Assembly (NCBI GenBank): GCA_034112445.1
Contig: JAWUVI010000021.1
Span: forward strand, 12,815-76,814
Direction of reading: 5' to 3'
Origin: Cellvibrionaceae bacterium
Lineage (GTDB): Bacteria > Pseudomonadota > Gammaproteobacteria > Pseudomonadales > Cellvibrionaceae
DNA: 64,000 nt
The notes beneath the pieces are model-generated. The model was not told the origin of the DNA, made no database searches, and was given only the letters and a program-made list of their open reading frames with translations. A program made the translations under genes and the position numbers. Shown piece by piece: positions 20,970 through 60,507 of the stretch. How positions within the stretch are numbered: the first letter of the stretch is position 1; every line of letters begins with the position of its first letter.

Positions 20970-20973
20970 AAAC

Positions 20974-22911: not shown

Positions 22912-23199
22912 TTATTCGGCGTTATCACCAATAGCACCAAAGCGGTTCTCATACTCATCGACTACTTTACCCAACAACAAACTCAAACGTTTGGCCGCAT
23001 ACGGGTTTAAAATAATACGATCAGAAAGGTTAATCGCCACTTCTTTCTGGCCCGTATGCCATGTCTGATTGGTTCCAAACAATAATGTGACTTCCTCACG
23101 AGTACTCGACACATTACACACATTCGCATACGAACTGCGCATTTGTGAATCATTCCACGTTAATTTTGGTGTGTTTTGCGCCTGCTTTTTATCGGTCAT
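22912..23199 (-). CDS. Small cytoplasmic protein, DUF3467-like
   Basis: 95 aa with an AAGGA Shine-Dalgarno upstream. Pattern SSYANVCNVSSTREEVTLLFG...RIILNPYAAKRLSLLLGKVVDEYENRFGAI matches my recollection of the DUF3467 family. No signal peptide. It lies immediately downstream of the giant gene (42-nt gap). Confidence 0.6.
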   Translation of the reverse strand: MTDKKQAQNTPKLTWNDSQMRSSYANVCNVSSTREEVTLLFGTNQTWHTGQKEVAINLSDRIILNPYAAKRLSLLLGKVVDEYENRFGAIGDNAE

Positions 23200-23241: not shown

Positions 23242-26200
23242 TTATTTACTCGTCTTACGACGAACTAGCTCACCATCACTCCAAGTAAACAGATTCTGCT
23301 CTTTGGCTTTTTGTGTCATTAATTCTTCTGAATTCTCAACACTGTAGCTCTGTTTGTTTTGGGTTTTCTGGCGAACTTGCCAGCCACGTCGCATGGCAGC
23401 CAAAGATATTACACCCAAGATAGCTTCAGCTCCACGACTAACACCTGAATTGTCATCGGAGTCAACGTTCGATACCTTCATCGTCGCATCATCCTCAGCT
23501 TTCTCTTGTGGAATTGGGTTGCCATCTTCATCAAGAAGCACACAGCCTTCCGGTATAATTGGATCGCCGTTTTCATCAAGTTCAACTTCAATGGGCTCGC
23601 CGTTTTCATCGACAACTTGAACGTCACATGAGACCTCAGACTCACCAGTATCTTCAGTTTCTTCACCAGCCGCCGTAGCCGGTAAGCTCTGTAAAAAGTC
23701 TTGCAGAGAATCATTAGCCGATGCGCCTTCACTTCCCGTACCCACTCGTACCAGCAATAAATTACTGCTGTGGATATTGGTGGTGAATTCGCCCGCTACT
23801 TGATAAACGTCTGACCAATCCAAGTCCAACTCAATGGCGAAGGCGCTGTAGTATTGCCCCTGAGTCGCACCGATTAATTCAAGCGATGCTGGATCCGTAG
23901 AAATCAGTACACCACCAACGGTTTGAGTAAAGCGACCATAACCACCCAAGGCGATATCTTCTATGAAGTTGGCCTCAAACAAATCACTCTCGTGTCCGCC
24001 AAGTAACCAATCAAATCCTTCACCACCATCAATGGTATCGGCGCCACCTTTTAACGGATCGATCGTATCAGCAAAGAACTGGCCGACTTGATCGTAACCG
24101 ATGATGCCGAAATCACCGAAGATGATGTCATTACCAGCGTCACCATAAAGTTCATCTTCGGCGCCGCCACCCATAATCCAGTCGTTGTCATCGCCACCAT
24201 GAACCACATCCTGACCGCCTTGGTCAGGCAAGGTGGTTACCATTTCAACAAAGACATCATTCTGGAAGGTCATTTCACCGCTGTCAGCCAAGACCATATC
24301 GTCCCCGGCACCTGCATCAACGGTATCGTCATCAAGGCCAGCAATAATACGATCCTTACCGGCACCTGAGTCGATTGAATCATCACCCGTAGTACTTGGG
24401 TCTGAATCAGTTGAGGCTAAGCGAGACGCTATGCCATTGGTGTATTCAATGATGCCGTTATCACCAAAGATGTCATCGTCACCACCGGTGGTAGTAATCG
24501 TGTCATCGCCCTGACCTGCCAGGATGGTGTTGTCTCCGCCAGTGCTGCGAATTATGTCCTTACCGCCATTGATGAGATCAGTGTTCTCGATGGTTTCAAT
24601 AACACCGGCTGAATCGTAATTAATCTCGCCGTTGTCACCAATGACGCGATCATTGCCTGTGCCCGTATCCACGGTATCACTACCTTGGCCTGCAATAACG
24701 GTGTTATCACCTTCGCCTGCATCAATAACGTCATCACCACCTAGGTCGGTTACCGTACTGGTGGCGCGAGTTAAAATTGCGTCAACATAGATAAGTTCAC
24801 CGCTGTCAGCTAACACAACATCGTTACCAGAGCTCGTGGTGATTTGGTCGTTATCTAGACCGGCAATAATACGATTATTACCAATACCCGCATTAATAAT
24901 GTCGTCGCCTGTAGTGGACTCATCAACATCAATGGAAACCAAGCGAGAAGCAACACCAGTGGTGTATTCAATTAAGCCGTTATCACCAAATATGTCATCA
25001 TCGCCATCGAGTGTAGTAACCGTGTCGTTACCTTGACCAGCAATAATAACGTTACCGCCATGGCCAGCGGTAATAACGTCATTGGCGCCATTAACAATAG
25101 ATGTACTGCTCAGACGATCAATAACTCCCGCTGTTGTCCAAATCATTTCGCCGCTATCGCCAATGATATGATTAGAACCCGCACCGGCTGTTACTGTATC
25201 TTCACCATTACCGGCGATGATCCAACCAGTAACGTCCGTTAATGTAATTTGATCATTACCGCCTTCAGTCTCAACTGTAGAGACCATGCGGGTAACAACA
25301 TCATTAACCACTTCTATTTGACCATTATCAGCTAAGACATGAGCCGTTCCAGCATCAACGGTAACAACATCATCACCGAGTCCAGCTAATACGCGATTAT
25401 TACCATCCGTTACCGTAATCGTATCTATTGATGCTGTAGCAGGCGTTATATCCGAAGTTTGTAGTAGAACAGCCAAGCCATTTGCATCGAAGTCAATAGA
25501 GCCATTGTCACCTATAAGATTATTGGTGCCGCTAGCATTAATCGTGTCCTCACCAAAGCCAGCAATAACACTGTTAACGCCAGTGCCGCCGACGGTAATA
25601 TCATCCGCGCCACCATTACCGGAGACATCGGATTCAATTCGCGAAATAACGCTACCGTTGTAAGTAATTGTACCTAGATCACCAATAACGACATTGCTGC
25701 CAAGGCTATCGATAACCGTGTCATTGCCTAATCCAGCAATGATTCGATCATCGCCTTCATTGCCCATTATGTAGTCATTACCCATAACACTGGTGCTATG
25801 CGATTGAATCGTAATAGCCATGGTGCTGGTGATTTCATCGGCAAACAATGGCGTCGCAGTACCATCGCTATTATCAGTAACTACGCCCTCATCGCCAAGG
25901 ATGATGTCAACACCTTCACCGCCGTATAAGTAGTCATCACTCGCACTACCAATAATCAAGTCATTACCAATTTGGCCATGGATACGTGTCGCCAAAGTTG
26001 AGCCACTGGCATTAACTGTATCGTCTCCATCTTGGCCAAAAATATCTAAGCGACGCGCTCCGGTATCGCCGCCAGTATTAAGAACGTCATGAGAGATGAC
26101 GTCAGTGACTGTGCTGGTAATACGATCGCTGCCTTCATTGCCATAAAGCGTGGTAACGCTAACATCCGAGCCTGTCACATCTTCAAAATAAACACCGGTG

Positions 26201-29200: not shown

Positions 29201-32200
29201 AATACAGGTGTCGATATAACTTCGTCATTCGTATAACTACTGGTGTCAGTAAACGATTTACCAAAATCAAGATCAAACAAGCCTTGCGCCGAGGCAATAC
29301 GTTGTTGACTGATAACGGCATCATCTATCTGATTGCCATCCCCAATGACAATAGTTGCACCATTAGCGGTTGCATTATTGGTTAAACCCGCGGCCTCTAA
29401 TTGCAACATCAACCAATCAGCAACAATATTATTAATTGGTTCTGCCACCGTAACAGCGGCTATGTCTGCTTGGGTCACTTCATGAGTAAACGCAACACCA
29501 TTCACCGTCACCATCCAAACATCCCCAATAGCCGGAGAGCTGTCAGCGTTCAGATCAAGAGTGAACTTATCCCAGCGATCGTGTGTATTATCCCATGTTG
29601 GAGCTGGTAAGATTTCTGCATTTTTAATGATTAAGTTGGCGTCTATTTGCCCTTCATCTGCAGCCACAATAACCAATTCATCTCCAGAAGCGGTTACATC
29701 ATAACCGCTACCAAAGTGAGTACTGATCGCCAAGGCCATAGCGTCTAGGTCAGTTGTTGCGGTGCCAATATAAGGTTGCACACCAGACCCGGCGATAGTA
29801 ACAGTCCATTGATCACCAGCTGAAATTAATCCGCTGACATCGATGCTTTGCTCATAAACCGTAACAGTACTTGTTGTAGGCGAGGCTGACGTAATGACAT
29901 CGGCATGCAACGTCAGATTGGGAGCCGCGCCATTTGTGCGTTTAATCAACAAAGTATTGCTATTGGAATCATAAGTAGCCGTATAAGAACCACCAAAATC
30001 ACCCGCTAAATTGTCACCGATGGTACCCAATGCCAGGGATCCATCTGATTCACTAGAGACAACCGTTGAACCTGACAAAACACTCCAATTAGCTGCTGTG
30101 ACGGTATTATCCAACACTAATTTTTGTTGATACTGGCTATTGGAGGAAGCAAACGTGCCATTACCTGAAGCGGACGAGGTTGCTGTCGAAATGCCGCTGC
30201 CACTTGCGGCGGCGATAGCCGTTAATCCAACGCTAAACGATGTTGAATCTATCGAAGTAACAACATAATCAGAACTGAGAGTATTACTTAGGTAAGAACG
30301 TAAATCAGCCGTAACATCCGCCAACGAAGGCCGATCTGCTACATCCGTGAAACTGGCCGTGTAGGTTTTAGTCACCCCATCAATATTGATGGTCCAAGAC
30401 TGGCCACTGCTAACTTGTCCGGCATCGCCTACGGTAAAGGTACGCTGAATTAATTCTGATGAAGCTCCTTGTATCTGCTCATCCTCAGTAACCGTAAGAG
30501 AAACGCTTTTAGAACCAGCATCGACAATTGAAAGCTCATTACCATTAGAAAATCCAGAGTACTCAATTCGGTAATCAGAACCTAGACCTGGTGCTGTGTC
30601 GGTTTTGACTTTAGCGATTAAGCCATTGGCTATTTCGGTGAACGTTGGGTTGCTATCGGTTGGGTAAGTAAAGGTATCACTGCCAATGGTTAGCGCCCAT
30701 ACCTGACCGGTACCATATGCAGATACAGAAGATAAAACAAAATCATTCTCTTGCAGTTCAGTCGACGACTGAGATGAAACTACAGTCGTCTCATGATCTA
30801 CGTCTAGTCGGAATCCAACTTCAGTATTGCTAATCTGTACACTCTTATTATCAGCACTACGAGTCACATTAAAGAAGGTGTTTACAGAGCCATAAAACTG
30901 AGTATTAAGACCAGTGCTAGCATGATTCAACTGGTTGAATAAATCTGTCGTTAGAGAAATATCTGTACTGCTAGGACCTGCAGTAACGGTGTACTCTTCA
31001 CCACTCACATTGACAGTCCAAACATCTCCATCAGTGACAGAAGCAGGAAAATCTATCGTAGAGCTAAGACGCCAGCCACCAGCTGCACCAGTATCACCAA
31101 CATCAGCAGGACTATTGTTGGGAGCTCCAGCTGGACCGGACAACATGTCGGTTGTTACTTCTATAACATAATTATCTTTGTAGTAAGAACCACCGCCTTC
31201 AATGGTGAGGTGATGCATTGAGTCATCAATAGAGCCATCAAGGGTACCAATATTATCATTGGGTTGATCGTACCAGCCGGTGTTCTTACCTGTGATGCTA
31301 TCCGTACTGACCTGTTGACCTGTGGTTAATTTAGATTCTGCTTCATTCTCCAACAGCGGTGCAGGTATAAATTTAAATTCGGCAACCTCTTGGTTTTCAA
31401 GACCGAGGTGTAACTTATAATCTACGCCTTCAGGAACACCGGTTCCGTAAGTCGCTGATTTGTTGGTTCTACCATCGACTTCAAGAACGTAGATGCCAGC
31501 CGTATTAATTGTTGCTGATAAGCGAGCATCATTGATGCTTGTGCTACCAGAGTCGGTTGTCGAACTACCAAAACCAGTAATACTCACTGGTACGTATTCA
31601 CCATCAATTAATTGCAAAAGGCGTAAACTACTCTGCCACCAAATACCATCTCCTGACTCATACCCCGAATCAATATCAGCGCTAAAACTTACAGGACCTT
31701 CTTTGACAACAAACTCGTAATAGTCACGGCTATCATCGCCGGTGCCATTAACGGTTATATGAGGTCTGTCTTCAGACAGTTCGATGTCATCGCTAACAGC
31801 CTCACTCCAACGTGCAAGACTGAGGTCTTGAGCCGTAGCCATGGAATCATTGCCCACTAACTCTTCTACTTCAGCAAGACCAACACTGCCTGTAAATAAA
31901 TTGCCAGCGGCATCAGTAATCGCTTCACCTTGAGCCAGTACACCTGTTGTAGCACGCTCTGCCACTTGGGTAGTGGAGTCACTTTGTAAGCGATAAGAGG
32001 TGATAATGTCATCGACAGTTGAGTCAATACCATCCATATCGGTAATGACTCTCTCAAGTAACAACAGAGTTGGTTCGTCACCATCGGCGATGGTGACGTC
32101 GACTACGCCCATATTAAAGCCGTCGTAGTTAGTGTCTTCACTGGTCACTGTATGAGTAATTCGCCCGTAGTGTGTTCCTTCAACCACATCATCCGCATTC

Positions 32201-35200
32201 GCTTTAAAGGTAACGGTTTGCACATCGCGCCAGTTGTCTTTAGTGAACTTGAGGGTCACCGAATTGGCAAAAGTTACACCATCATCATCACTGAGCGACA
32301 ACTGGCCATCAGTATCAGCCGTTCCGTCAGCCGCTATGGTAACGAATACATCTTCTGCAGGCTCTTGACTCAACACAACTCGATAGCTGTCTTTATTCAA
32401 CTCAGTAATATCTTCAGCAACTAATGGCGAACCATTGTTTTGACTGATAACAACAGACGCTGAATCTTCATCGATTACTTGTACCACCATACGGCTTAAA
32501 GAAAGCCTATCGTAGTCATCACCATCCTGATCGGTAAGACCTTCCATCACACTGTGACGAATTTCTACTGATTGATTGCCTTCGGCGTAATTATCTTCAA
32601 GCGCTGTCACAGTAATGGTTTGAGCAATAAACCAGTTACTTCTGTCAAATAATAACGTCGTGGCTGTTTCATTACCGTTAAGAGCAACGCCTTTAGCGCC
32701 AGCTTCTTGTTCATCTTCAGTTGGAACAACGGCTGTTGCAGAGATACGTACAACATCTTCTGGCGGTCTAGTTAAGACCACTTCGTAAGTTGTAACACTA
32801 TTTGGATCAACCAATGCAGTGCCGTCTTCATCTTCATAAGCGCGGAGTGACCCCGCGATTGGACGAATCAAGACACCGGCTTCATCGGCATCCATTACAT
32901 TAGCTGAAATCATTGCCTTGATGGCATCTAAACGCTCATCGGTGCTGGTTACAATATTTTCAATCAGGCCGCTATGACCAAGCAAATCATCGGCAACCAC
33001 CGATACAGCATCGCCATCATTACCACCAGCCATTTCAAAGGTGTCACTGCCTAAACCGCCAACTAAATTGAGCTGTACGTTTTCATTCGTGCTGTAAACA
33101 AAGAAAGTATCGTTACCTTCCATGCCATCGATGACCAGTTTTTCGATACCTTCAAAGTTGGTGAAGCGCCCTGCTCCATAAACGCCTGTATCAGTAATAA
33201 CAAAATCATCACCAAATTCAGTACCTAAAATAGTGACTGTATCTAAGCCATCACCACCAGAAATATTAACCGGAGCATTTAAAGCGTAACTGATAAAGTC
33301 AGCGCCCTGACCACCATTAATATTAGTAAACGGTGCTTGAGGATCATCAGGATTAACCAACACGAAACTACGAATTAAGAAGGTATCGTTATCTTCATCA
33401 CCATAGAGTGAAATTTCTTTAGTGTTTCGATAAATAGTGAAACTGTCTTCACCTGTGCCACCGCGCAATGTCGCGGGGAAGCTAATGCCGTTACTGATAA
33501 AACCTTTTGTAACCAACGTTGTATCAAAGATATCTTTTGGTTCAATAGGAGACAAACCAGACAATGCATCACGTGGCGAGTTGAATACCTGACCCACTTG
33601 GAAGTTATCGTTACCAGCATCGCCAAATACGGTTAATGCCGCGCTGGTATCATCGAAAGTAAAGTTGTCATCGCCGTCACGACCATAAACGTTAATGCCA
33701 CCATTGAGATCGCTACCATAGTTGACTCGCTCGATGTCACTTCCAGCAACACGATTACCATTGCTGTCTAATTCCATTTGCATCGCATTAATAGAGTTTG
33801 GACGGAACAGGAAGTCATCGACATCATCGGTGCCAAATACGTTCAAGGTATTTATGGCATCTAAATCACCAGCTGATTGATCATCAATATTAATAATTGA
33901 TGACCCAGAACCCGCCAGGGCAATATTGTAAAAATCTGAGCCCTCTTGACCATATAGGTTCAACACACCACCAATACCATTGAGGAATGTTTGTTGATTA
34001 AACTTGTCAAAGTTCACATTAATAGTGTCATCGTCACCATCACCAGCAAAAACAGAGGCCTGAAGACCTGTTCCTGAGAGATTAAGAGTGTCACCACCAG
34101 AGCCTAACTTAATCGTTGTATTTTCGGCTTTCTGTACAGAAACATGAACTTGATCGGCACCTGATCCTGTATCCAAAACCACTCGATTAAAGGTGTTATT
34201 AGCGATGATATTGACTTCATCGGCACCAAAACCTGAATCGACCGTTAAGTTATCCATAACGGTATCGCTGATGATATTAATTACATCTGCACCGCCACCA
34301 GTGTTAAGCGTAATGTCTAGCCAATCAACACCCTCGGTAATATTAACGGTATCGTCAATGTCATGAATTTGAGTCACCACATCATCAAGCGGATCATCAT
34401 TACCTTGATCGTCTATGTCGTCAGCATTAACATTGAACGTGGCATTCTCAAAACCGCGTAACCACAAGCCACTCCAATCGCTATTTTCAAGCTCAATGGT
34501 ATCGTAGCTAACGTCATAGGCCGTATAGTCAAGGCCATCTGTATCAAGTTTGCGACCTTCTACATAATCATTAGTAACTTTTACATCTACTGTGGTGGTT
34601 TTATTAACCGTGATGGTTTCTGGCAAGTAGAAACCAGCGGTATCTTGGAAGGTCGTAATATCAACACTGTACTCATCGCTCGTGCTATCACCGTTTTTAT
34701 CTAAAATGAGGCCGTCACTCAAGGTTGCCTTAACCGCAACGGAGTTTTGTAATTGCGTCACCCGAATCAATTTGTCGACATTAACTTGAGTGAATTGTGT
34801 TCCGATTCCTGAAGTATCAACACCACTCGGTGCCGCACTGATTAGTGCCGCACGATAAGCCGACCAGTTATCAGCCGTTAGATAGAGCTCTTCAGTTTCA
34901 CCGTATTTAACCCCAAAAGCATCTTTTAGATCCGCGGTATATTCCAGCAAATCTTCAAGCGCCACAGGCGCATTAAAGCGATTAATAGCAACGCCTTCTA
35001 GAGCTGGATCGCCATTGGCTGCCACACCATAGTACGAATAGGTGTAATAACTTGTATTCAATGCCGCCAAGGCATCGGCATAAGCCATTTCCATCGCGAT
35101 GGTATTGCCCTTTGGCGCTTCAATAGAGCTAGACACTGAGGTAGTAGGATCAGCAGTCATTTCGCCTACGGTATAAATAATACTGAGCAGACGCAGTGTG

Positions 35201-44200: not shown

Positions 44201-47200
44201 AGTAAATAAACGCCTGATTGAGACAACAACATGCTATCTACGTTGATTCGATCGTCTCCAGCGCCACCGATAATGGTGATTTTATCTAACGTGCCATCAT
44301 TTTCAGTATCGGCAAATATATCGACAATATCGGAACCAGCACCGGCATTAATCGTAATGGTATCGACTCGTCCATTGAGTTTACTTAACTTGTAGCGATC
44401 AAAAGCTGCTGCATCAGGATCGCTACCATCATGGTCTGTGCCGTTTATAACAACATGGTTAATTTGTGAGGCCAAGAAGAATTCTGCACGTAGGCCGGTA
44501 CTGACAACAATCACCTCATCATCAAGACTGCGCCAATTAGCCAGCATGTCACGTAGGGCTACTTCTTCATCTCGGGTATAAAATTCAGTATTGATATAAC
44601 CGTTTTCTGACATTTTCTGCAGGGTTAAATCACCATCGATAGGCAAGACTTCTACTGTATAGTTTTGTGCGCCATCGGAATCATCTCCGTAATAATCAAG
44701 TACTAGAGTGTCACCATTGGTGTGCTGTCTTTTACCGTCGGTTATAACAGGGGCAACTGGGTTACCACTAGAGTCTAGGCTTGTGACGTAGGCAATATCT
44801 CGCGCCGCATCGTGAATACACTCCCATGAGAACTCAGCAATAATTTCTTCAACAAAACGGTCTTTGGCTTCAAACAAGGTAATGGTGCTGAAGCCCATGT
44901 CGATTCCGATCCATAAGAAGGCTTCTACAAAAACGGCTAACTGACCTTCCACATCAAACAAACACTGTGGTCCGTGAGTGATGCGCTCTACCAACTCAGA
45001 TCCGTAGAGCTTGCCATCACCAATAGGCAAGTCATTTTGGAAAGCGGTTTCCATATCGTTCAAATCAAAACCGATAACCGCTTCAATACCACCTTTAACA
45101 CCGGCTTCAACAATACCGCCTATACCTAATGAAGCTTTGGCGTAAATTTCTGCTTTAATGGTGGCTTCAAAGGCATCGACATCGGTATTTTCTATACCGT
45201 GATCATCCAAATAGAAACCATTAAATACGCGCCAGCTTTCGGCCATATCAAAACCGGTATCCATCCATTCGCTGATACCACGAGTATCAAAGCCGAAATC
45301 GAAGTTGGTGTAAGCACCAATGGCTCCACCTAAACCAAGGTTTAAACCTGGGTAGACCATAAAGGTTTTTTCATAACCAAACTCTAATTCTAGGTCTGGC
45401 AAGTCGTACCAGAACAGATCCACTTCGCCTTTACCCAAGACGAAATTGAGTACGCTCATTGGGTCTTCAAGTACCGGAATACGGAACTTTTTGGGCCCAG
45501 CCGTAGCGTTTAATCCACCGCCAGCAATGGCATCTGAAGTGCTTGAATCTGCTGAAGATTGAGGATTACTGGTTGCCGTCTCTTGCGCACTGCTTTCATC
45601 CACTTGTTGGTTTGATCCACTTAACGCACCGCCAGTTAAGTTAAAGCTACCAAAGTTGATGCCGCCACTCATGTCTTCGACACTGTCTAAAAAGTCGATG
45701 GTATCGGCTATGGCATTCAATACCTTTTTGGCTGTATCAACGACTGAGGCTGGCAATTTCAAATAAGCAATGTCGATAAATTGCAGCTTGGTGATGCCTA
45801 GATCAATTTCCATGGTTAAAAGATCAACCAGTGGTTTCAATGGCGTTACAATATCGGAGATAACACCGAAGGTGTCTCCAAGGAAGCTGTCAAAAACAGA
45901 ACCAATATCAAGAGTTAAGTCATGCAGGATTACTTCAGGGCTGCCAAGCTCAAAGCTGGCGCCTTCGCCAAGTACAAAACTCGCGGTAAGTTCTTGTGAA
46001 TATTCAAGAATGGTGTGTATTGAAGGCAATATATCACCAACCGAAGTGGCAACTTGTGCGTATAAGTTAGCTTTAGCTTCAGCATTGGCATTTAAAGAAA
46101 CACCAATATCAGAAAGAATATCCCCTGCAGCTAAACGCCCGCCATCACCACCGGTTATGTCTACGCCAAGATGACCCCAAAGACCGGTTTCACCGTCATT
46201 GGTAATATTGGTTGCTTCGCCATTCAACATTTCACCGTTGGTTATATCCATGGCTAAGAAGCCAAGAGTACCGGTAGCTTTGCTGTTCTGTGCCAACTCA
46301 GCTTTAACATCGAGAGCAATCTCTTCACCGGCGGTATTAATACCACTGGTGTCTAAGAAAACACCCATTTCGATGCCATTGTCACTGACGTTACCAATGC
46401 CTAAGCCAAAGCCCATTAGGTAGTCCATCAGCACTTCAATTTCAGAGTCAACTTCTAAGTTGATGCCCGGAATACCAACACTGAAATCAATGGGTATACC
46501 AACTTCTTCTATTATTGTGTCACGGCTGTAGTAGGTTTCATTCACATCATGGGTATAGCTGATGGCATAAGCGCCTTCCGGTGAAAGGGTGTAATAGGTC
46601 TGCCCCCTCTCTTCAAGACTTACTGCAACATCATTTATTTCGGTATAGGTATAATCACCAACCAATAAGCCACCGAATTTCAAGTTAAACGTTATTAAAC
46701 CGGTATCGCTGAAGATCAGTTCAATATCATCGGGACTGGTGGGTACACGGGTAATTAATTTACCAAATTCGTCAAATTGTTCCGCGCCATATTCATCATA
46801 AATAGGCACAACAAACGAGAAGAGCTTGCTGTTAATACCATTTAAGCCTTCAAATAAAGCTTCGCGAATTTCGTCTAGAATCCCTTCAATAACACCTTCG
46901 TTAGCGGCATCTTGGGCTTGTAACCAACCGCCAAGGCTATCGGTAACATAATCACCCGAAGCATCAAGTTCGCCTAACACACCGGCTTTTATGCTTCTTA
47001 ATGTATCGGCTAAATCATCAAACGCATCGCCGCCAATTAATGGCAGCTCTATTTCACCGATACCATCAGCAACGTAATCAATACCACTGAAGAAACCCTC
47101 GATTCCACCCAGTAATAATGCAGGATCATCAAGAAATCCGATTAAAGCAGCCAAAACCGTGGCGTTATCAAAGGCAAACTCTGGGATAGAGTAATCGTAA

Positions 47201-50200
47201 CCAGCCGTAAACTCGCCCGTTAAAGGATTAACGGTAAAACCGGCGCTGGCTCCTAACACATTATCGGCATAGCCATTGCCATCAAGGTCTTCAATTGAAC
47301 CACCGAGAGGCATAGATTCGATGGGGAAATACAATGGTAATTCTAATTCTGCCGTACCGTAGGCTTCTGCTTCAAAGCTATCCACGATTTCATGCAGTTC
47401 TAAATAGCCAACGTGACCATCTGCGTCAGGGGCTGATGCATCAAAGGCACCGAATCCAGCACTAAAGCCTAACTCAAGACCGGCATGGCCGTCCTTACCA
47501 ATCATCCCTAGAACCAAATCTAAGGAATCCGGAATCCCAACGATTCCCAAAGCACCGGCTGTGCCACCAAGATCAATGCCAACCGTTAAATCAATATCTT
47601 CGGCCGTGGCACTTAATAACACCTCAAAACCGGAATTTTCATCGATGTAAAAAATCGGGTCTAATACATTACTGAGATCAAAACCAAAACCTAAGTTCAA
47701 GCCCATTTCGGCCAGAAGATCTATGGTCGCGTCAGAAGTAATTGACAGGACTTCAGTTAAATCATCAATAGGTAGATCCCACTGATCGAGACCTAAGTCG
47801 TCGATACTGAAATCCAGGTCAAAGCTGTGTTCATAGATGGTGTTGATATTAAAATCGACATCAAGAACCGAATTAGCGTACTCGGCTGTGATTAACTCAA
47901 TATCACTGGCCAGGTCAAATAAGGTACGTAACTCTTCATTTAAAAAGTCGACCATTTCATAGAGGTTGTCGGAAGCTCCACGAGCCGCATCCAAAATAGT
48001 CTGGATACCTTCGCCAACACCTGTGGCACCTTCACCAAGCAAGTCTTCAACACTTTTACCTACAAGCGGAATGTCTTGATAAAGAAGTCCAGTTTGTACG
48101 TACCATTCACCGGTAACCGCTTGATAAGCACCTTCTAGTTCTGATGCTGACAAGGCGATAAGTTCAGACTCGAAAATTTCTAAGCTTAAATCGATGCCTC
48201 CATCTGGACGAGAAGCTTTAAGCTCTTGCGCCCAATACTCAGTGCCGTCAAGCATTGTCCATAACTTGAGAGTAATACTTCCTTCTGCTGTACGTACAGA
48301 TTTAACAACCTGCTTACCAAGAGCGTCAATTGTTGGGGTATAATTCGCAGGGGTTATTACAACACCTTCAGAGTCAAGAACTTCGGCTACGAAATCAATG
48401 GCGGGAATCGCGCTTACGGACCAAATCTCTTTTTGGAGGTTGGCTAGCTCAGTGCCTATAGCAAGGTACTCTTCGCCCATAACTTCATTAAGAAGGTTAT
48501 CGAGCATATCGAGAATATTGTCGAGAGACAGTAATCCCATGTTTTTAAGATCGAAAATATCTTGCGGGAAAATGATGTCATAATCGGTTTCAAAGGTACC
48601 CGACTCATAGGCAAAACCAGCACCTAGGTGCATTAGATTATCAGCGTAACCATCCGCATTTAAGTCTTCAGAAGAACCACCCGCTGGGTTAGTTTCAGTT
48701 GGGAAGAACAAGGGCATATCAAAACTGGCGTCGCCAGCCAGAGTTATATCTAAGGCATCGGTCCCTAATTCGCTCAGTTCTACAAGAGAATAACGACCAG
48801 CATCGGTATCAACCAAGTTAGCGCCGGCTTGAAGACCAATAGAGCCTTCACCGTCAACGCCCCACAAGCCAATTTCTTGACCGAATATGCCTATAGTCGC
48901 TTGTGCACCAAGATCTACACCGGCGGCTGTAGCGGTAAAATCAATACCTGAATCATCACCCAAATAGGCGTAGTTTAATGGGTTAACCGGACCTCGGGCT
49001 GCGAATCCAGCTTGGCCAAACTCTTTAACATCGAAATCAAGATTGAAATTAAAATCCAGTGCGGCATCTAACAATAGAGTACCGGAGGTACCGAACACCA
49101 CATCGATCATATCGAGAGGTAATCCTAGTAATTCCCCTATTTCCACTTCGGTTAGAGCAACATCGAAATCTAACTCGTAGAGAAAATCCCAATCGAAATC
49201 CCAGTCAAACCCAAGATTCCAACCGTCAAAGACTAAATCAATATCAATCACAGGCGGAGTGATGCCGAGACTGCCGAACAACGTATTCAACTCTAGCTCT
49301 AGCCAGTCAGCCAATTCAGGCAAAGAGGAGAAACTGGTACGAATGTCGCCAATGAGGCTAGAGAAAAAGTCACTGATGCCATCAAATTCAGGCACCATTA
49401 ATCCACCCACCTCTATTTTGGGCATTAAAGAACTAAAGATTCCGTCTAAGCTGACATTGAAGCCTGGTATCTCAAACCCTAAAACATCGATATCACCTAA
49501 AACATCAAACGCGCCTTGCAACATGGCCAATAAATCATCGAGTGATAGATTAGACAGATCAAACAGCTTCGAGAGATCCGGCATATCAAATTGCAGATCG
49601 CTAAAGAAATCGCCTATATCACCAACAGAAACACTCGGGAAACTAGGTGTACCAAAACTAGGGACATCTGGGAAACCAGGTGCACTAAGACTCGGGAGAC
49701 CAGGAAAATTAGGGGTGCTGATGGATATAGTTGGCAATGGCGGCAAGCCGCCTAAATCTGGAATACCGCCCAAATCTTCAACGGTTGGCAATGAAAGATC
49801 CATACCGCCAACTTGAATGGCTAGCGGCAAGTCAGCTTTAAAACCACTGCCTTTGCTCATGGATATAGCTAATTGATTATCCAGCAGTGCTGTACCTGCG
49901 GCCTCATCATAATCGGCGTGAACCGAATCGAAGGCATTTACAACACCATCAAGATCAGAAAGAGTCAGATCACCACTATTGCCAAGACGCAGCTGCGCCA
50001 ACATTTCTAACGAACCATCAACCACTTCGCCTTTAATAAGGCCGAAGTCTACGGTTACATCAATATCATCTTCACTGATTCGAGATTCGAAATTAATGCC
50101 TGCATCGCGAACGTAAAACTCACCCGCTTCATCGTTAGGACCAACGCCAAAGGCAAAATCAAAGCTGAGGTTATTTGTCAGCCTAGGCTGAAAATCAACA

Positions 50201-53200
50201 CTGACACCGGGAATATTACTGAGAGCACTACCCAGATCAAGACCAACAGCGTCTAGTTCTTCAAACAAATTGACGTTAACGCCAAATTCTAACAAGCGGT
50301 TATTAAGGGTGATATTTAAGATATTACGGTCGGTAACGCTGGCAGTTTCATTTAGAACTAAGTTGCCATCAGCGTCGGCCACAATAGTGTTTCCGTTCAC
50401 CAAAAAGTCGCCAGTGCTCTCATCCTTAGAGATATTAATAATTACTGTTTCAAGTCCGCTTTGTGTTCCCGATAAATAAGCAGCGACATAACGGAAAGAA
50501 ACTTCTTGGCTTTCACCGTTCGCTAAATCTGGAAAATCAGTCGCTGGGTCAATTGAATAGCTGTATGTGCCATCGTCATTGAATACCAATGTGCCCGTAT
50601 TCGGCCCTTCTAGACCATCAAATAAGCTGTAAGAGTTGGGAGCTATCGTATCTAAGAGAGCGAATAATTCATCACTGGTAACTACTTGATCAGCTGGAAG
50701 CACTTCTAAAGCTTTTGCGTCAAAGAACGCCTGTAGCGGGGTGATAATTTGATCTTGAATGGCCGCGCTAATAATACTGGAAAAATCAACCGTACCGCTT
50801 TGCTCGATTGCATCACCATTGGCATCAAAACCAGTGGTTATTTTTTCGTAAAGTTCGCCGAAAGTGGCGTCCATGATTGGCACAGGCGTATCTAATAGTT
50901 CGTCCCAATCGGTGTAATTATCGGCAATTAAATCCACCCATTCTTTGAGTTTTTCAAGGCCGTCAATTAATGAGGTTTGAGCCACTGTATCAATAGTGAT
51001 ATTGGCTTGCTCTTGGGTATTTGCAGATTGGCCTTCAACGAATTTTTCTACATTGAAATCAGTGGTGACCGTATTAGCGCCACTAGTAACCGTTATATCA
51101 CGGGTTATCGCTGTCGCTAGATCTATTGCTGTGCCATCGCCACGGCCCATGTTGTAGGCTAAATCTGTGGTTACTTGTGAAAAGTCTAGGGTGTCAGTAT
51201 CCGCATCACCGGCGGTAATTGTGTCACCACCCCAGTCGTCAGCAAAAATAAAGGTATCATCACCTGCACCACCCGATAATGTGTCGTCACCGGCACCGCC
51301 TGCGATGATATTTGCCGCGCTATCGCCCGTTAATGTGTCATTTCCAGCACTGCCTATCAGGTTTTCAATGCCGGTTAATGTAGCAATACCATTAGCGGGA
51401 ACATCGTTATCAACTGCTGTACCAGTACCAACAGCACCTTGTGACAAGTCAGCATTGACATTAACATTTTCGATGTTGGCAAAGCTGACTGTATCAATAC
51501 CATCACCACCAACGATTACATCGCGCAAATCAGCGCCCGCAGTCCAGGAACCTAGTTTAAATAGGTTGTCTTCATCGCTTCCTGTAATAGTATCTACAGC
51601 TGAAGTAGAGACTGAACCAAAGACATTTTGAATATGGGCAACACTGGTGAAGCCAGTGGCGGTTTGAGTTTCTTTATTACTTAAATCGACGGTTATATTC
51701 GAGGTATAACCTGCAGAGAAATAATCCAGGGTATTGGTGCCCTCACCTGCATCAGCCGTTCCACTAAAGTCTCCACCATCTTCAACAGTAAAAGTATCGT
51801 CACCTGAACCACTGGTTAAAACCCAAGTACCCGAATTGGTACCAGACACAGTTATTGTGTTGTTCACAGACGCTGGTGCCGTTGAAGCTAAGGCGCTCGG
51901 GGTAACATCCGCATTAACAGTTAAACTGTTAGAGGAAAAAGTAAACGACAAATCAGAGCTTGCCGCTGACAAATCAAGCGTGTTTGTACCAGCCGTATCG
52001 GTGATAGTGTCAGCTTGTCCTGTTGGAGAAGCTGCCAACTCAATAGGAGACAAACGATCTGACCAAGTGTCGTCGACTATATAAGTATCGTTATCTCCTT
52101 CTCCTTTGAGCGTGTCATTACCTTTACCACCATCAAGAATATCGTTACCTGCACCACCGCTAATCGTATCGTTGCCTTCACCACCCAGCAGTTTATCAAT
52201 GCCAGCACCGCCTACTATGGTGTCATTAGCACCGCTGCCATCTATAACGTTCGCATTATCATCACCCGTTAAGGTATCTTCGAACTGCGTACCGATCAGA
52301 TTATCAACATTAGTTACTGTTCCTGTAACACTGGTAGTTGTTCCAACAACAAGACTGGATAAATCGACGATTACACCAGAGTCGTCACCTTTATCGTACT
52401 GACTGTAATCCAGTGTGGCTGAACCCGTCCCGCCATCAATATCACCAGCAAACTCAACATCACCAACAAAAACAAATTGATTTTCGCCGCTGCCGCCGAT
52501 TAGTTTTTCTACATTGGTCGCAATAACCGACTGTGTGACTATTTCAGTAAGCGTAAGTGTTTCGGTTCTGTAGACAGGCGTTGTTGTATCGTCTTCCGGT
52601 ATATAAAATTCCGCACCAATTGTGCCGTTGGTCAAGCCAATGCGGACCAATTCTGTAATCGTAACTTCTTGCGTGGTGGAAACGGTAACCTGAATATTGT
52701 TAGTTGGGTCGCCATTCTCGTCCAACTCTTTTTCAATGCTAAACACCAAATCAGATGTGACAGCGCTAAAGTCTAAAGTACCTTTTTTACCGGTAGCCGT
52801 AGCAGAATCATCAAGCAGAAGTTCTGTCTCAGAATCCCCCCCCCACTGGTTTTTAAAGACGTAACTATTGTTACCTTCACCGCCTTTAATCAATTCAATA
52901 TTTTCTAATGAACCGGAACCGACATAAACGCTGCTAGCCGAATCGGCAGCAACCAAAGAGCCTGAGTCGAAAGTCATGGTTAAATCGGTGGTTACCGCAT
53001 CAACCTGTGCAATGCCTAGGGTTCCATCAGAAGCCGTAACGGCCTCTATACCCGCAAAACTGATGGTATCTTCACCACCTTCAATACCTTCAATAACCCC
53101 ACGCACAGTCAAATGAGCGCCATTGGTTAAACCTTTGGCCGCTGTTACGATGAGATCCGCACCACCACTGACGGTGTTTTCTCCTTCTGTAACAACCAAA

Positions 53201-56200
53201 CCACTGGCTGCTTGAGCCGTGAAAGTTAAATTAATGGTTTGCTGAGTACCATCGGATAAGTTGAGAACGATGCTATGAGAAATATTTTCAGCAACTGTAT
53301 CAAGCTGCGCTTCATCGCCAACCACAAAATGGTAACTTCCGTCTGCATTGACAACAATATAATCTTGGCCGCCCCAACTGTAGCTCTCCCCTAAAGGAAA
53401 TGAGCCACTATTGCCAATTGCAGAAACTTTAACGCCTTCATTTAATGTAAATTGACCATTCAACACTAAGCCCGCCGCTTTAGTGTCAACACTCACAGTA
53501 CCGGAATTAACCGTAATTTCACCGTTAACCAGTGTTACTGTTTTGGTCAGTGTTTCTTCTGTACCCAGCTCGTTTTGAACGGTTACTGTGAACTCATCAG
53601 TAAAGGTTTTACCTATAGCTTGTGTGGCAGCACCAACAGCTGGCTTGTATGCATAACCGCCATCTGTATTGACAGTTAACGTGGCACCACTGGTTAATGT
53701 AATCGGTGACCCACTGGTAATGGCGGCATCGTTAATTTTAGCAACGCTAAAGGTATCTATATCTTGGCCCCAATCACCCGAAAATAGATAAAGATCATCA
53801 CCATGGCTGCCAACAAGACCATCAGCTCCTGCACCGCCGAGTAAAATGTCATCTCCCGTACCGCCAAAGATCAAATCGTTATCAGCACCGCCGTCTATGT
53901 AGTCGTTATCGTCTCCGCCATAAATAGAGTCCGCACCTGCCCCACCACTGATGTGATCAGCTCCGGCTTGGCCTTCGATAATATCGCCTTGGGTAACATC
54001 AGATTCATCACCACCAACAATGGTGTCCATACCGGCACCAGCAATAATAAGGTCTGCTGATGAACCTCCAGTTAGAGTGTCATCATCAATATCACCAAAT
54101 AATTGAGTCTCAATACCGTCAGCAGCAGTGAACGTATCATCTTTATATGTGCCAACTAAGAGGTTAATGCCGGTAACGTTTCCACCAAATCCTAAAACAC
54201 CAGCCGCTGTTGCACCGGTTTTCAAATCAACGGTTAAGCCTGTTCCTGCAATTACAGTGTGTGCTGAACTAGGGCTGGAAGCACCTTCAGTAGCCGTTGA
54301 GTCAACAGTTAGAACACCTTCCGCTGAACGACTAATAACAAAATCTAGGCTATGAACTGTTGGTGTAATGTCATCGCCTGCAGCATTGGCAACTGAATAT
54401 GACACAGATAAATTTGTAGACGCGCCATTGGCTAGGTTTTTAAAGTCTTTATCTAGGTTAACGAGATACTCATAACTACCATTAGCTGCCAGCTCAACTT
54501 CACCGAACCCAGTAACAGGGTTTGATGTGAGAACGTAATTAACCGCATTAGTTACGGATAATTGACCCGATACGACAGCTGGGATTGTGACCGCTGCTTC
54601 GTAAGCCAAAGTTTGAACATTACCGGTGAGCTCGCCGGCTGTGGAATTTAGATATCCGCTTATGCTTCCATCTTTTTCCACAAAATATGAATTATTACCT
54701 GCACCACCAATAATGTTGTCCACTTTCTCGAAAGAAGCGCGGCGAACTTTATCATCCGTGCCAATAGTGGAGACAATTACGGTTCCGTCTTCTTTAATAG
54801 TGAATTTTAGATCGGTTGTAACTTGACTGAAATCGAGGGTTACGGTCGAAGACTCGCCATTCTCAATCAGTAACGTATTGAGCCAATTATTTTGAAAGGC
54901 ATAAGTGTTAACCGCACTACCACCAACCAGTTTCTCTATATTAGTGATGCCACTGATACTATCAGTACCAACTGTTGCACCAACTCCTGTAGAACCAATG
55001 GTAAACAAAACATCCGAGCTGGTGTAGGTGAAATCTATAGAATCTAAAGAGCCGTCGGCTGAGCCTTCATTAATAACGGTGCCATTCCAACCCGTGCCGC
55101 TGAAAACATAAGCATCGTCGCCTTTGCCGCCGGTTAAGTTATCACTACCGGTTGAGCTGTAAAGAACGTCTGAGCCGTCGCCACCTAAAACAGTATCATG
55201 GCCTTCACCACCAAAGAGCAAATCGTCTCCACTACCGCCTTCTAGAGTATCTGCGCCGCCTTGGCCCCATATTTCATCATCGCCTGCACCGCCTATCAAG
55301 GTATCAGCCACCGAACCATCAGCTCCGATTAATGTATCGTTACCCTGACCACCATCAACCGTTAACTGGGATGTTGTGGTATTGGAGATATAATCATCAC
55401 TAGAGCTGCCTTGTACGAGGTTGTCACTGAATATTAAGCCTTCACCTTCGGCAGCGCCTAGATCAATATAATTAAATGTGAAACCTTCAAAGTTAACCCA
55501 ACTGTCATCTGAATTCTGCGCTGAAAGAGCATCGTATAATTCATCAGCTTGAGCTGTAGAGGTGTTATTAACGACTACAGCACCTTCAAAGTTAGCGGCG
55601 TAACTGAGATTAAAGCTGGTGGTATTACTGTTGGTACCCGCTGCCGCTTTAAGCGAACCAGATAAACTACCCGCGCCACTGAAGATCACATTATTATCAG
55701 ATCCTTTACCCAAAATAACGTCGGAAACACCTTCCGCAAAAATAACGTACTCGCCGCTGGATAGATGAATCGTTACCTTAACTTCGCCGTCACCATGTAT
55801 ATCAACATCGACAACACCGGTAACACTGGATAGATCAAGTAAATTACTGCTTTGCGAACCGTCAAACTGAAGACTTATAGAGCCCGCTTCTGTAATGGTA
55901 CCGATAACATAGGTACTCGAGGAAAGGCCCGACGAAGGTACTTTAATGCTCTCAATATTAGAGCCACTGATATTAAAGGTAAGGTCTTTTTGTACAAAAC
56001 TGGTGATTTTATTAGTGACCGTTAAGGTCTGCTCTGGCGCATCAACAAACAAAATGCCTTCATCGTTAATGTCTATTTCAACTTGATTTAGGTCTACTCC
56101 ACCTTTTATACCATTTGCTTGAATTTTGGTTTCTACTTTTTCTTTCCAAAGCTGCATAATGACTTCAGTTAGCTTTTCATTACTGACGACTTTGGCAATA

Positions 56201-59178: not shown

Positions 59179-60507
59179 TCATTGCAGCCAGCCATTAATA
59201 AATTCTATGTCCGTATCGATCAGTACGCCGGCGGCGCGCTTTAAACGGATGTAGTTAATGGCGTAATCATTGCGGGCAGCAATGTAATTTTGCTGAGCGC
59301 TGGCAAGATCTTGCTGAGCATCTAACACCGCAATAATGCTGTACAAGCCCGTTTGAAAACCGCGCTCTTTGTTGTCTAACACCGCGTTCTGCGCCACAAC
59401 CGTCTGCTTAAGTGCTTTGATTTGAGCGATATTAGCTACGATACCCTGAAACGAGGATTGCGCTTGGTTCTGCACAGTACGCTGAGCCAACACGATGTCT
59501 TCTTGAGCTTTATACATCCGCTGATAGGCTTCACGACGACGCGAAGAAACGGCGCCACCTTGGTAAAGAGGCAGATCAAATTTAAGCGTCAGATCTTCTT
59601 GTTCGATATCATTCAAACCACCGTACAAAGACCCCTCTTTGACTTGCGTAAAATTCTGCATCGTCAATGACAAGGTTGGGTAATGCCCTGCCGTTTGCGC
59701 TTTGATTTCATAGCGAGCTTCTTCTTGCTTTTTCTGTGCGATTTTTACGTCAGGGTTATTGGCTAAACCTTGGGTAATCCAAGCTTCTGGATCGGCTGGT
59801 TCAGGTAATACCAAGGGTATTTGATCGCGCATAGCCGCTAGCGGCTCAGGCAAACGCCCAATAATTTCAAACAACGCATAACGTGCGTCGTTGTAAGCCT
59901 TGTTAAATTCACTTTGTTTGGCCACAGAGGACAAATAGCGAGCTTCCGCATCGTTCACTTCAGCCGAACGGCCTATGCCCGCCGAGTGACTTTTTTGTGC
60001 GTACTGCAAGTGTCTTTTCAGTGCCGCTTTTTCAGCGCCTATGGAGGCCAATTGCTCACGAGCCTTAATTGATTCAAAATAGGCTTCCGCTACCCGCAGC
60101 AACAAATCTTGGCTGGCCTTTTCAAACTCTGAATCAGCGCGCGTATTAGCCGCTTTCGACTGACCGTAACGCATCCAGTATTCATAGTTAAAAATAGATT
60201 GAGACAGCGTTAATGAATTGGTTTCAGAGGTGAAATTCTGAGCACCCGTTGAACCGAACACCGTATCACTGGTTTCGTTAATTGTTTGATCTGATTCAGT
60301 ATTTTCTATCGAATAAGACAGGCTAGGTAACAATCTAGCTCGGGCTTGCTTTATCCCTTCAGCGGTTGCTGCGCGCTCAAAGCCAGCTCCACGAAACATA
60401 GGGTCTGATTGTTTGGCCAGCGTCATTATGTCGACCAGATCTTCTGACCAACTGGTGGCGGCAACTGTCATGGCTACTGCAAATGCACATCCGTGAACCA
60501 ACTTCAT
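59179..60507 (-). CDS. TolC-family outer-membrane efflux/type I secretion duct protein
   Basis: 442 aa. Signal peptide (MKLVHGCAFAVAMTVAATSWSED). Two-fold internal repeat of the helix-rich TolC pattern (LPSLSYSIENTES..., YPTLSLTMQN..., LDAQQDLASAQQNYIAARNDYAINYIRLKRAAG). GAGGG Shine-Dalgarno. It lies 82 nt upstream of the giant ORF. Confidence 0.85.
   Translation of the reverse strand: MKLVHGCAFAVAMTVAATSWSEDLVDIMTLAKQSDPMFRGAGFERAATAEGIKQARARLLPSLSYSIENTESDQTINETSDTVFGSTGAQNFTSETNSLTLSQSIFNYEYWMRYGQSKAANTRADSEFEKASQDLLLRVAEAYFESIKAREQLASIGAEKAALKRHLQYAQKSHSAGIGRSAEVNDAEARYLSSVAKQSEFNKAYNDARYALFEIIGRLPEPLAAMRDQIPLVLPEPADPEAWITQGLANNPDVKIAQKKQEEARYEIKAQTAGHYPTLSLTMQNFTQVKEGSLYGGLNDIEQEDLTLKFDLPLYQGGAVSSRRREAYQRMYKAQEDIVLAQRTVQNQAQSSFQGIVANIAQIKALKQTVVAQNAVLDNKERGFQTGLYSIIAVLDAQQDLASAQQNYIAARNDYAINYIRLKRAAGVLIDTDIEFINGWLQ

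Follow-up and report, generated by a model that had tools for sequence, protein, structure and literature searches.

A giant RTX protein of the LEPR-XLL/DUF4347 class encoded within a probable type 1-like secretion operon that carries a truncated SecA paralog and no ABC transporter

The stretch of DNA analysed here (hereafter the window) comprises 64,000 nucleotides from a Cellvibrionaceae bacterium (GenBank assembly GCA_034112445.1, contig JAWUVI010000021.1, positions 12,815 to 76,814 of the forward strand), in which a single open reading frame (ORF) of 35.9 kb on the minus strand (23242..59097) encodes a giant RTX-type protein. Analysis of this gene and its surroundings indicated that the giant is probably the cargo of a type 1-like secretion system encoded around it in one operon, which would be energised by a SecA-type motor instead of an ATP-binding cassette (ABC) transporter. 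The operon, also on the minus strand, consists of seven co-oriented and tightly packed genes, with short gaps or overlaps between them, in the order TolC-type channel, giant, DUF3467 protein, GAF-HlyD protein, PqqD-like/M50/HlyD fusion, truncated SecA and short adaptor. Coordinates below are those of the window and refer to its minus strand unless another strand is given.

Giant RTX adhesins and toxins shape biofilm formation, attachment to hosts and particles, and ice or diatom binding in marine bacteria, and it is assumed that they cannot be exported without an ABC transporter. The four-gene cassette of the present operon was found by comparative genomics by Kamneva, Poudel & Ward 2015 (PLoS One, PMC4452313). 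It contains a GAF+HlyD protein, a Peptidase_M50 protein that may also carry HlyD, a SecA_DEAD protein that lacks the C-terminal SecA domains, and a protein of the HlyD/Biotin_lipoyl type, in some cases accompanied by an OEP protein. In that paper SecA_DEAD was proposed as an ATPase replacing the ABC transporter and M50 as a possible membrane component; the substrate was not named, the biological role was called "completely unknown", and RTX, giant genes, DUF3467, DUF4347 and LEPR-XLL were not mentioned. All five components of this type are adjacent and co-oriented in the window, in the order of the M. extorquens operon of PMC4452313. Compared with that locus, the cassette is tied here to giant LEPR-XLL/DUF4347 proteins with a conserved tail, and is accompanied by DUF3467 and by a PqqD-like domain on the M50 protein. 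Relative to the literature searched, which held no follow-up work on the cassette, the new elements appear to be the link to a cargo, the bipartite tail, DUF3467 and the PqqD-like domain. Taken as a whole, the locus represents a variant of type 1 secretion, with machinery that has been noted once, by computation.

Results

The giant gene is intact and has a collinear ortholog

The giant frame runs for 11,951 codons from a GTG to one terminal stop. The likelier start is an ATG at 59088, three codons inside the GTG (11,948 aa), as AAAGGTG is found a short way upstream of it, the Joint Genome Institute (JGI) gene call on an identical contig is also of 11,948 aa, and the closest homologs begin at the equivalent Met (alignment A1). 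The protein is rich in Gly (10.5%), Asp (10.4%) and Thr (9%) and contains just 5 Cys.

It is impossible for a frame of about 12,000 codons to have stayed open by chance. A previous reading of the window made from the letters alone (the sequence-only reading) had reported one uninterrupted ORF, which was borne out, without naming its strand, and had raised the worry that repeats could have been collapsed or expanded during assembly. When this was checked, no tandem DNA repeats were found in the giant gene, and its strongest internal repeat had merely 70% identity over 250 nt, so that collapse or expansion is unlikely. The GC content at third codon positions (GC3) was flat along the gene (0.35-0.41) and the same as in neighbouring genes.

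An assembly artefact or a decaying pseudogene, in place of one protein, might nevertheless be suspected: the contig was assembled from a metagenome, other assemblies often break giant genes into pieces (loci L023, L025 and L108), and the sole second copy of the contig that was found, that of JGI, is 100% identical to the window and thus represents the same assembly and not independent support. This suspicion is contradicted by a collinear ortholog of 11,336 aa in the independently assembled genome of Ca. Pelagadaptatus aseana (Cellvibrionaceae, GCA_040362265.1), where synteny is shared and the locus is followed, as in the window, by genes for DAHP synthase, a UvrD-like protein and a PD-(D/E)XK protein. 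The last 2,539 aa of the ortholog are collinear with the window giant at 46% identity and with zero stops. With the absence of stops and of collapsible repeats in the window gene and its uniform GC3, an artefact or pseudogene is extremely improbable. A frame that is open and collinear at 46% identity shows purifying selection on the reading frame; therefore, the giant ORF is a real, functional gene. To call it one of the largest bacterial genes, as had been done, was an overstatement, since a homologous locus described below encodes 18,499 aa and proteins of up to 85,804 aa are on record (bioRxiv 10.1101/2023.11.21.568195).

The giant gene is embedded in a set of secretion genes

The ORF had formerly been read in isolation, implicitly as a LapA-like type 1 substrate, and the secretion genes on both sides of it were missed. 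At 81 nt upstream of the giant ORF lies the gene for a TolC-family channel of 442 aa (59179..60507; Pfam OEP E 2.7e-49; TIGR01844 type_I_sec_TolC 281.6 bits, cutoff 225), and the same arrangement of OEP followed by a DUF4347 gene is found in Pseudomaricurvus albidus (L024). The 400-nt gap after the giant stop holds a gene for a DUF3467 protein of 95 aa (22912..23199; PF11950 80 bits, cutoff 25). No gene of the locus is better conserved: its identity is 65-91% across orders and 65-87% at the same position in 7 genome loci, and it has 2,594 homologs. No signal peptide and no leader-like features were found in the DUF3467 protein. Its AlphaFold2 (AF2) model, with a predicted local distance difference test score (pLDDT) of 69, has four strands and one long helix and gave no Foldseek match below E = 1 in the PDB. 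A SecB-like chaperone was considered and rejected, as hhalign gave a probability of 0.3% against E. coli SecB and Foldseek no match at this pLDDT. Functional literature was found neither for DUF3467 nor for DUF4347.

The next two genes encode inner membrane proteins with an adaptor part. The GAF-HlyD protein (20974..22839; HlyD_D23 5.5e-17, HlyD_3 1.4e-13, GAF 1.5e-5; NCBIfam RND_mfp 3.6e-23) is predicted to place about 350 residues with the GAF domain in the cytoplasm, to cross the membrane with one helix (aa 358-376) and to have its adaptor domain in the periplasm; a search for relatives of its N-terminal region with a solved structure returned none. The fusion protein (18825..21005, with a probable start 12 codons after a TTG, giving 714 aa) is made up of a PqqD-like domain, an M50-type domain, another membrane helix and an adaptor domain in the periplasm. 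For the N-terminal domain PqqD was the only PDB match (E 0.15), and the Pfam PqqD family was matched by 11 of 18 members of the protein family. In the M50 part, HELGH and NGNPLLKFD are present in the window protein, and HExxH and NGNPLxxFD are invariant in 33 homologs; the Pfam M50 score of 26.2 is just under the gathering threshold of 27.2. Judged from these motifs, the fusion protein carries an M50-type (site-2 protease) intramembrane metalloprotease with a conserved active site. Its AF2 model (pLDDT 79.8) matched MacA and MexA in Foldseek (E 1e-12), and it has more than 3,000 homologs.

The sixth gene encodes a truncated SecA paralog of 695 aa (16745..18832; SecA_DEAD 3.1e-89, SecA_PP_bind 1.2e-23, P-loop_SecA 1.4e-39). 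It begins with an N-terminal extension of about 80 aa, continues through the first nucleotide-binding domain (NBD1), the preprotein cross-linking domain and NBD2, and breaks off early in the scaffold helix; a wing domain, two-helix finger and C-terminal tail are missing. Accordingly, its alignment to SecA structures stops at residue 646 of 822 in Thermotoga maritima and 603 of about 800 in Bacillus subtilis. Walker A (MATGEGKT) and LVDEAD are intact, and all NCBIfam SecA and SecA2 models scored below their cutoffs (e.g. 517 vs 862). The last gene, whose start overlaps the SecA-like stop by 10 nt, encodes a short periplasmic adaptor of 270 aa (15942..16754; HlyD_D23 5.4e-19; RND_mfp 115 bits, cutoff 94.9) with a hydrophobic N-terminal signal or anchor. 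No cassette protein reached the cutoff of the specific NCBIfam models. To span the envelope, the system has an outer membrane channel along with three proteins of adaptor fold, of which two are anchored in the inner membrane and bear cytoplasmic domains.

Among the window ORFs of at least 150 aa (64 kb, searched with Pfam), no ABC transporter, LapG or LapD was detected, so the earlier statement that lapG and lapD are not nearby holds for these ORFs. A HAMP-GGDEF-EAL gene (6000..8084) was considered as a LapD candidate and rejected, because its HAMP domain occupies aa 65-112 and leaves no room for a periplasmic domain. The suggestion that any surface retention must differ from the LapA paradigm also fits the operon, in which an intramembrane metalloprotease and a GAF sensor are found instead.

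The giant could also be an ordinary type 1 substrate whose ABC transporter is encoded elsewhere in the genome, the cassette serving only to process, retain or release it as an accessory comparable to LapG/LapD. Classical type 1 substrates have a C-terminal RTX array and then a C-terminal extension, as the giant does, M50 and PqqD-like domains are modules for processing and recognition and not channels, the GAF domain suggests regulation, a variant cassette (L025) does without the SecA-like gene, and 64 kb alone were in view. On the other hand, the three adaptor-fold proteins and the TolC gene already make up a complete scaffold across the envelope, and no need for a second one is evident, the cassette includes an ATPase with an intact preprotein-binding domain, and no ABC transporter was present in about 30 homologous loci that were inspected. 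As three adaptors, an adjoining TolC and an ATPase in one operon are hard to reconcile with an ABC transporter at another site, we regard this alternative as unlikely.

Cassette and giant genes are linked in other genomes

The association between cassette and giant genes was followed by three independent routes, which started from the SecA-like and M50-HlyD proteins, from DUF3467 in metagenomes, and from homology to the N-terminus of the giant. A very large ORF immediately precedes the cassette in Cellvibrionaceae, Pseudomaricurvus, Simiduia, an Oceanospirillales metagenome-assembled genome (MAG) and Amphritea. Giants upstream of the cassette measure 7,962 aa in Vibrio comitans, 8,040 aa in a Desulforhopalus MAG and 11,336 aa in Ca. 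Pelagadaptatus, and in a 6.5-Mb genome (L021, 1..7464) a gene for 18,499 aa, about 1.5 times the window giant, precedes DUF3467 and the cassette. In another MAG the giant upstream of the cassette is split (at least 2,207 + 1,314 aa). In Pelomonas/Roseateles, the order is large ORF, PEP-CTERM protein, TolC and cassette; the small PEP-CTERM gene sits at about 3700..4400 in L007-L009 and L014.

Along the metagenome route, DUF3467 was located in at least 587 loci, and 80 of these were retrieved. A single ORF filled the whole upstream sequence in 14 of the 21 loci with at least 3 kb upstream, these ORFs covering 1,178 to 3,322 aa before being ended by the edge of the locus, and the cassette was present in 10 of the 12 loci with at least 8 kb downstream. 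By the N-terminal route, two distant DUF4347 genes were found whose start is immediately preceded by GAF-HlyD, M50, SecA_DEAD and HlyD genes. This gene order differs from that of the window; one of the two proteins has ELEPRVLFSAD and cadherin-type repeats. Overall, the linkage spans gamma-, delta- and betaproteobacteria, two gene orders and giants of 7,962-18,499 aa.

These data also bear on the possibility that the cassette has another export substrate, for instance a small peptide of the ribosomally synthesized and post-translationally modified (RiPP) kind or DUF3467 itself, and that the giant is merely a frequent neighbour. In NCBIfam the M50 part is closest to RiPP maturation proteases (daptide_HExxH 1.1e-40, 140 bits vs 300; YydH/LiaK 9.7e-12, 45 vs 225), the N-terminal domain of the fusion protein is PqqD-like, DUF3467 is far better conserved than the giant, and some DUF3467 or cassette loci have no adjoining giant. 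However, the protease matches are far under the family cutoffs, DUF3467 lacks signal- or leader-like features, no precursor-peptide gene was seen, and the giant linkage holds in three proteobacterial classes and two gene orders, with a specific C-terminal tail and an N-terminal motif in common among the giants. Since a chance neighbour fails to explain a linkage that is kept in two gene orders together with cargo-specific motifs, this possibility is very unlikely.

Several loci depart from the common arrangement. Locus L025 (10001..19573) contains a DUF4347 protein with an autotransporter-type ESPR-like start (MNKFFKSLWN) and LEPRIVFDGA but without a GW tail, in a gene series of OEP, HlyD-like, a split gene that may be GAF-HlyD, and M50-HlyD (26% identical to that of the window). 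This single case hints that the tail pairs with SecA-like/DUF3467 and LEPR-XLL with M50-HlyD. In L022 (14362..17052) the SecA-like protein and the short adaptor were called as one protein of 896 aa, insertion sequence (IS) elements lie upstream of DUF3467, and the DUF3467 protein of this contig is also present in a scaly-snail endosymbiont genome. The apparent SecA-HlyD fusion was not accepted as proof of coupling and was kept as a weak hint only, as the linker holds the adaptor's own Met and signal-like segment; it could be a real fusion, a read-through or gene-calling artefact, or a sign of decay of the system. Tandem DUF3467 paralogs, about 70% and 34% identical to that of the window, occur in L035 (5938..7034) and L039 (12..1075), those of L035 directly after a TolC-type gene and not after a giant ORF.

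Both ends of the giant carry conserved motifs

No hydrophobic signal-peptide segment was found at the N-terminus of the giant. Its first residues form a basic stretch of about 40 aa, in agreement with the basic leader described from the letters, followed by YLAEQMEARNLLSADL, a divergent copy of LEPR-XLL (MEARNLLSADL). The LEPR-XLL-like motif YLAEQMEARNLLSADLAPFAG (58909..58971) scored 15.8 bits with NF012209 LEPR-8K (cutoff 17, E 0.008), and aligned relatives scored 24.8-32.4 bits; the region also gave a sub-threshold match to Pfam Planc_extracel. The motif column is nearly invariant among DUF4347 proteins (alignment A1), and the basic extension of about 40 aa before it is common to the closest relatives alone. 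Within the first 1,000 aa, only DUF4347, RTX and LEPR-XLL were matched, and a canonical (T/A/P)AA(G/V) site was not seen in an inspection by eye in which no retention-module profile was used.

The C-terminal tail, which had been noted as atypical, proved to be a conserved bipartite motif (23245..23445). It consists of a hydrophobic stretch with RRGW (AEAILGVISLAAMRRGW), about 30 polar or basic residues and NLFTWSDGEL. In cassette-linked giants the general layout opens with an acidic linker and a short hydrophobic stretch whose end is (R/K)(R/K)GW or xGW, continues with about 25-35 polar or basic residues, and closes with (R/K)xΦxxW(xxGxΦ). This layout is kept in all giant-gene tails upstream of the cassette in the genome loci. 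When written as a regular expression, it matched 38 of 65 tails of upstream ORFs in the metagenomic loci; among the other ORFs of these loci it matched 1 of 467, and among shuffled tails 5 of 3,250. The hydrophobic part is 13 aa long in the window and shorter in distant homologs, and a membrane anchor or sorting helix was rejected, because some 10-13 residues are too short to span a membrane. From its conservation, the bipartite tail is a candidate targeting or processing signal. A search of a representative library with the last 200 aa of the giant returned 7 matches, all to an acidic DENGxPI stretch and none to the tail; giants seem to be poorly represented in that library.

Other tails were also observed. 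A second class (DG.F.FDEL...L.P.Y ... I.W) takes the place of the hydrophobic-GW tail in L061, L078, L095 and L103, and the large ORFs of Pelomonas/Roseateles end in a different but analogous tail, ALLA..RGxLG ... AWLKELEERAK.QWQQLVGGK. In addition, a short motif is shared by three proteins of the window, as PKLTWNDSQMRSSY in DUF3467 (aa 11-24, 23157..23198), PKLTWLDSFLRGTY in the N-terminal extension of the SecA-like protein (aa 51-64, 18641..18682) and NLFTWSDGELV at the C-terminus of the giant (23263..23295). In SecA-like proteins, the 'PKLTW-DS' motif is conserved among close relatives only. The resemblance may be due to chance or reflect a common docking strand.

The giant is built from RTX regions and repeat modules

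For domain searches the giant was split into 12 tiles, which were compared with Pfam and NCBIfam, and repeat modules were delimited with iterated hidden Markov models (HMMs). The module map of the sequence-only reading turned out to be broadly right. The DUF4347 domain recognised there was confirmed at aa 150-339 (58081..58650; PF14252 E 2.5e-49, 167.6 bits, cutoff 24.6, model positions 1-163 of 164); a sequence search for a relative with a solved structure gave none. RTX/HemolysinCabind matches were obtained in tiles 1, 2, 3, 6 and 12, the best in tile 12 (E 5.5e-46, 7 stretches), and the GGxGxD motif occurs 39 times. Seven of the 12 tiles had no above-threshold Pfam family and no NCBIfam match.

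The first RTX region (about aa 450-2720; 50938..57750) was delimited from HemolysinCabind matches in tiles 1-3, NCBIfam RTX-type matches, GGxGxD motifs, the self-similarity map and HMM iteration. Calcium-binding nonapeptide blocks alternate in it with non-RTX inserts. The RTX blocks were correctly recognised at first reading, whereas the VCBS-like nature then given to the inserts did not stand: neither VCBS nor T1SS_rpt_143 could be kept as a label, as the inserts matched no Pfam or NCBIfam family. The central region (about aa 2900-4750) was rightly set apart; it likewise had no family match in either database and contains a duplication of about 325 aa (aa 3280-3601 and 3729-4055; 46933..49260), both copies of which were found by a joint HMM at E ~1e-169. 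An array of (D/E)PW modules of about 100 aa each (38266..42834) is present as proposed, with 7 copies by iterative HMM (E 1e-28 to 1e-32, supported by motif contexts) and 4 occurrences of the strict motif instead of the ten modules counted before. The 7 modules lie at aa 5422-6059 and 6707-6944, with an RTX block interleaved at about aa 6450-6690.

Further along, two related modules of about 90-100 aa, of a size that suits the two beta-sandwiches proposed earlier, were delimited by HMM iteration at aa 8785-8885 and 8930-9014 (32056..32745); their Pfam matches, to CBM_21 and Ig-like families, were weak at best. The PPC-like domain at aa 9124-9209 (31471..31728) covers the full model length (positions 2-70 of 70) at a score below threshold (E 0.055, 14.8 bits, cutoff 25.9). 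For the G(D/Q)xW modules, of which six had been counted, the support consists of 5 strict motif matches at aa 9357-9858, spaced by 97-196 aa. The C-terminal Gly/Asp RTX-like array (aa 10995-11742; 23872..26115), thought to have 10-11 units, was resolved by HMM iteration into 12 units of about 60 aa. Taken together, the predicted domains identify the giant as a genuine RTX-type calcium-binding protein, extracellular or surface-bound, of the LEPR-XLL/DUF4347 class, and thus as a new member of the LEPR-XLL/DUF4347 RTX giants.

Flanking genes

Directly upstream of the TolC gene, an ORF of 169 aa (60544..61053) with an N-terminal hydrophobic anchor had no Pfam or NCBIfam match. By blastp, a homolog with 24% identity (E 5e-10 in a small database) was found in the Oceanospirillales locus L005 (12653..13159), directly after the short adaptor, although tblastn with the same ORF gave no match. 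It may be an accessory, eighth component, its membership being uncertain. Promoter and terminator scans gave counts at chance level. On the plus strand, 8262..14566 encodes a PD-(D/E)XK nuclease (918 aa) and a UvrD-like helicase (1,182 aa), an AddAB-like pair of housekeeping context that is kept in Ca. Pelagadaptatus.

Genes related to cyclic-di-GMP recur near these loci, as the HAMP-GGDEF-EAL gene in the window, a PilZ gene right after the cassette in Ca. Pelagadaptatus (L027, 14998..15687), and, in L108, a GGDEF gene (8526..9191) that separates the cassette from the DUF4347 gene. This recurrence suggests control by cyclic-di-GMP. The giant genes of Omnitrophota are also followed by pilZ genes (bioRxiv 10.1101/2023.11.21.568195).

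Discussion

As in LapA (with LapBCE and LapG/LapD), MpIBP, SiiE and FrhA, a huge repetitive RTX protein without a Sec signal peptide is encoded here alongside TolC and HlyD proteins, and as in classical type 1 adhesins its folded N-terminal domain could serve as a plug. The operon differs from LapA-type systems in having no ABC transporter, LapG or LapD, and the di-alanine module was not recognised in the giant. It differs from classical type 1 systems in the LEPR-XLL and DUF4347 N-terminus of the presumed cargo and in having three adaptors instead of one, along with SecA-like, M50, GAF and DUF3467 proteins. Classical type 1 secretion signals are not known to be conserved in sequence, whereas the tail of the window type is. 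With the LEPR-8K/DUF4347 giants of NF012209, the window protein shares a LEPR-x-LL-like motif followed by DUF4347, a length of thousands of residues, and RTX or, in other members, cadherin-type repeats; its motif is divergent from theirs and is preceded by the extra basic extension of about 40 aa. The sources searched gave no function or secretion route for the LEPR-XLL/DUF4347 family, and the sole literature mention of LEPR-XLL that was found is a passing note on a LEPR-XLL/RTX protein of about 8,000 aa in Vibrio (PMC10868602).

SecA modules have been linked to giant proteins before, as West-Roberts et al. 2023 described SecA_DEAD and preprotein-binding modules, without scaffold and wing, fused into Omnitrophota and actinobacterial giants, and proposed self-export of these proteins (bioRxiv 10.1101/2023.11.21.568195). 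In those giants the SecA module is part of the polypeptide, many membrane helices are present and the neighbours are type II/IV-like, whereas in the window the SecA-like protein has its own gene and the giant is soluble. The SecA-like protein also departs from canonical SecA and SecA2, as it lacks their full architecture and scores under the family cutoffs. The combination of a peptide-recognition domain, a membrane protease and a HlyD-type adaptor in one export-coupled machine recalls RiPP maturation and export modules; here, however, the protease scores below the family cutoffs, the presumed substrate has about 12,000 residues, and the energiser is SecA-like and not an ABC protein.

Beyond the status of the giant as cargo, a fuller proposal can be made, to which we give somewhat less than even confidence. 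According to it, the locus would encode a distinct Gram-negative secretion pathway for giant LEPR-XLL/DUF4347 proteins, in which the truncated SecA and the M50/adaptor protein replace the ABC transporter, the tail and/or LEPR-XLL select the cargo, DUF3467 serves as a dedicated partner in the cytoplasm, and a GAF-controlled protease takes the place of LapG/LapD.

We infer cargo status, transport direction, cleavage and chaperone role from the gene content as follows. The giant would be made in the cytoplasm without a Sec signal, and the low calcium there would keep the chain unfolded, possibly with the help of DUF3467, whose chaperone role is pure inference. A conserved terminal signal, either the tail or LEPR-XLL, would dock on the cytoplasmic face of the machine, at the PqqD-like domain, the SecA clamp or both. 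The SecA-like motor, which retains the preprotein-binding clamp, would be tethered to a platform formed by the membrane helices of M50 and the adaptors, and would drive the chain through the tunnel of the adaptors and through TolC. Once outside the cell, the RTX beta-rolls would fold with calcium and so make transport irreversible, as a ratchet. M50 may then remove the signal or release the giant, possibly under the control of GAF, and the pair would be a functional counterpart of LapG/LapD. Transport with the C-terminus first would fit the C-terminal RTX array and tail, with DUF4347 as an N-terminal plug; transport with the N-terminus first, as in SecA, is the alternative, because LEPR-XLL is equally conserved.

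Several points weigh against the proposed system. The literature that could be searched held no experimental evidence for it, and a classical type 1 ABC transporter could be encoded outside the 64 kb in view. No M50 protease is known to form a protein-conducting channel, and without the two-helix finger the mechanism of the SecA-like protein cannot be canonical. As both termini of the giant carry conserved motifs, either direction of transport fits. The LEPR-XLL score of the window protein (15.8 bits) is just under the curated cutoff of 17, and the SecB-like idea for DUF3467 failed both the sequence and the fold tests. Finally, DUF3467 has no cassette within 10 kb in L039, L059 and L094, the cassette of L022 is flanked by IS elements and has no adjoining giant, and the DUF4347 locus L025 has M50-HlyD but no SecA or DUF3467.

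The orphan cassette of 2015 thus gains a candidate class of cargo, the giant LEPR-XLL/DUF4347 proteins of up to 18,499 aa, a candidate signal in the bipartite tail, and two components that were not in the original paper, DUF3467 and the PqqD-like domain. Judging from over 3,000 homologs of M50-HlyD and at least 587 loci with DUF3467, the system is widespread, and cultivable carriers such as Simiduia aestuariiviva CECT 8571, Pseudomaricurvus spp., Amphritea atlantica and Vibrio comitans make the model directly testable. If it is true, it would represent a new energising principle for TolC-dependent secretion, a SecA-type motor without SecY, and it could explain the SecA_DEAD modules that are fused to the giants of Omnitrophota.

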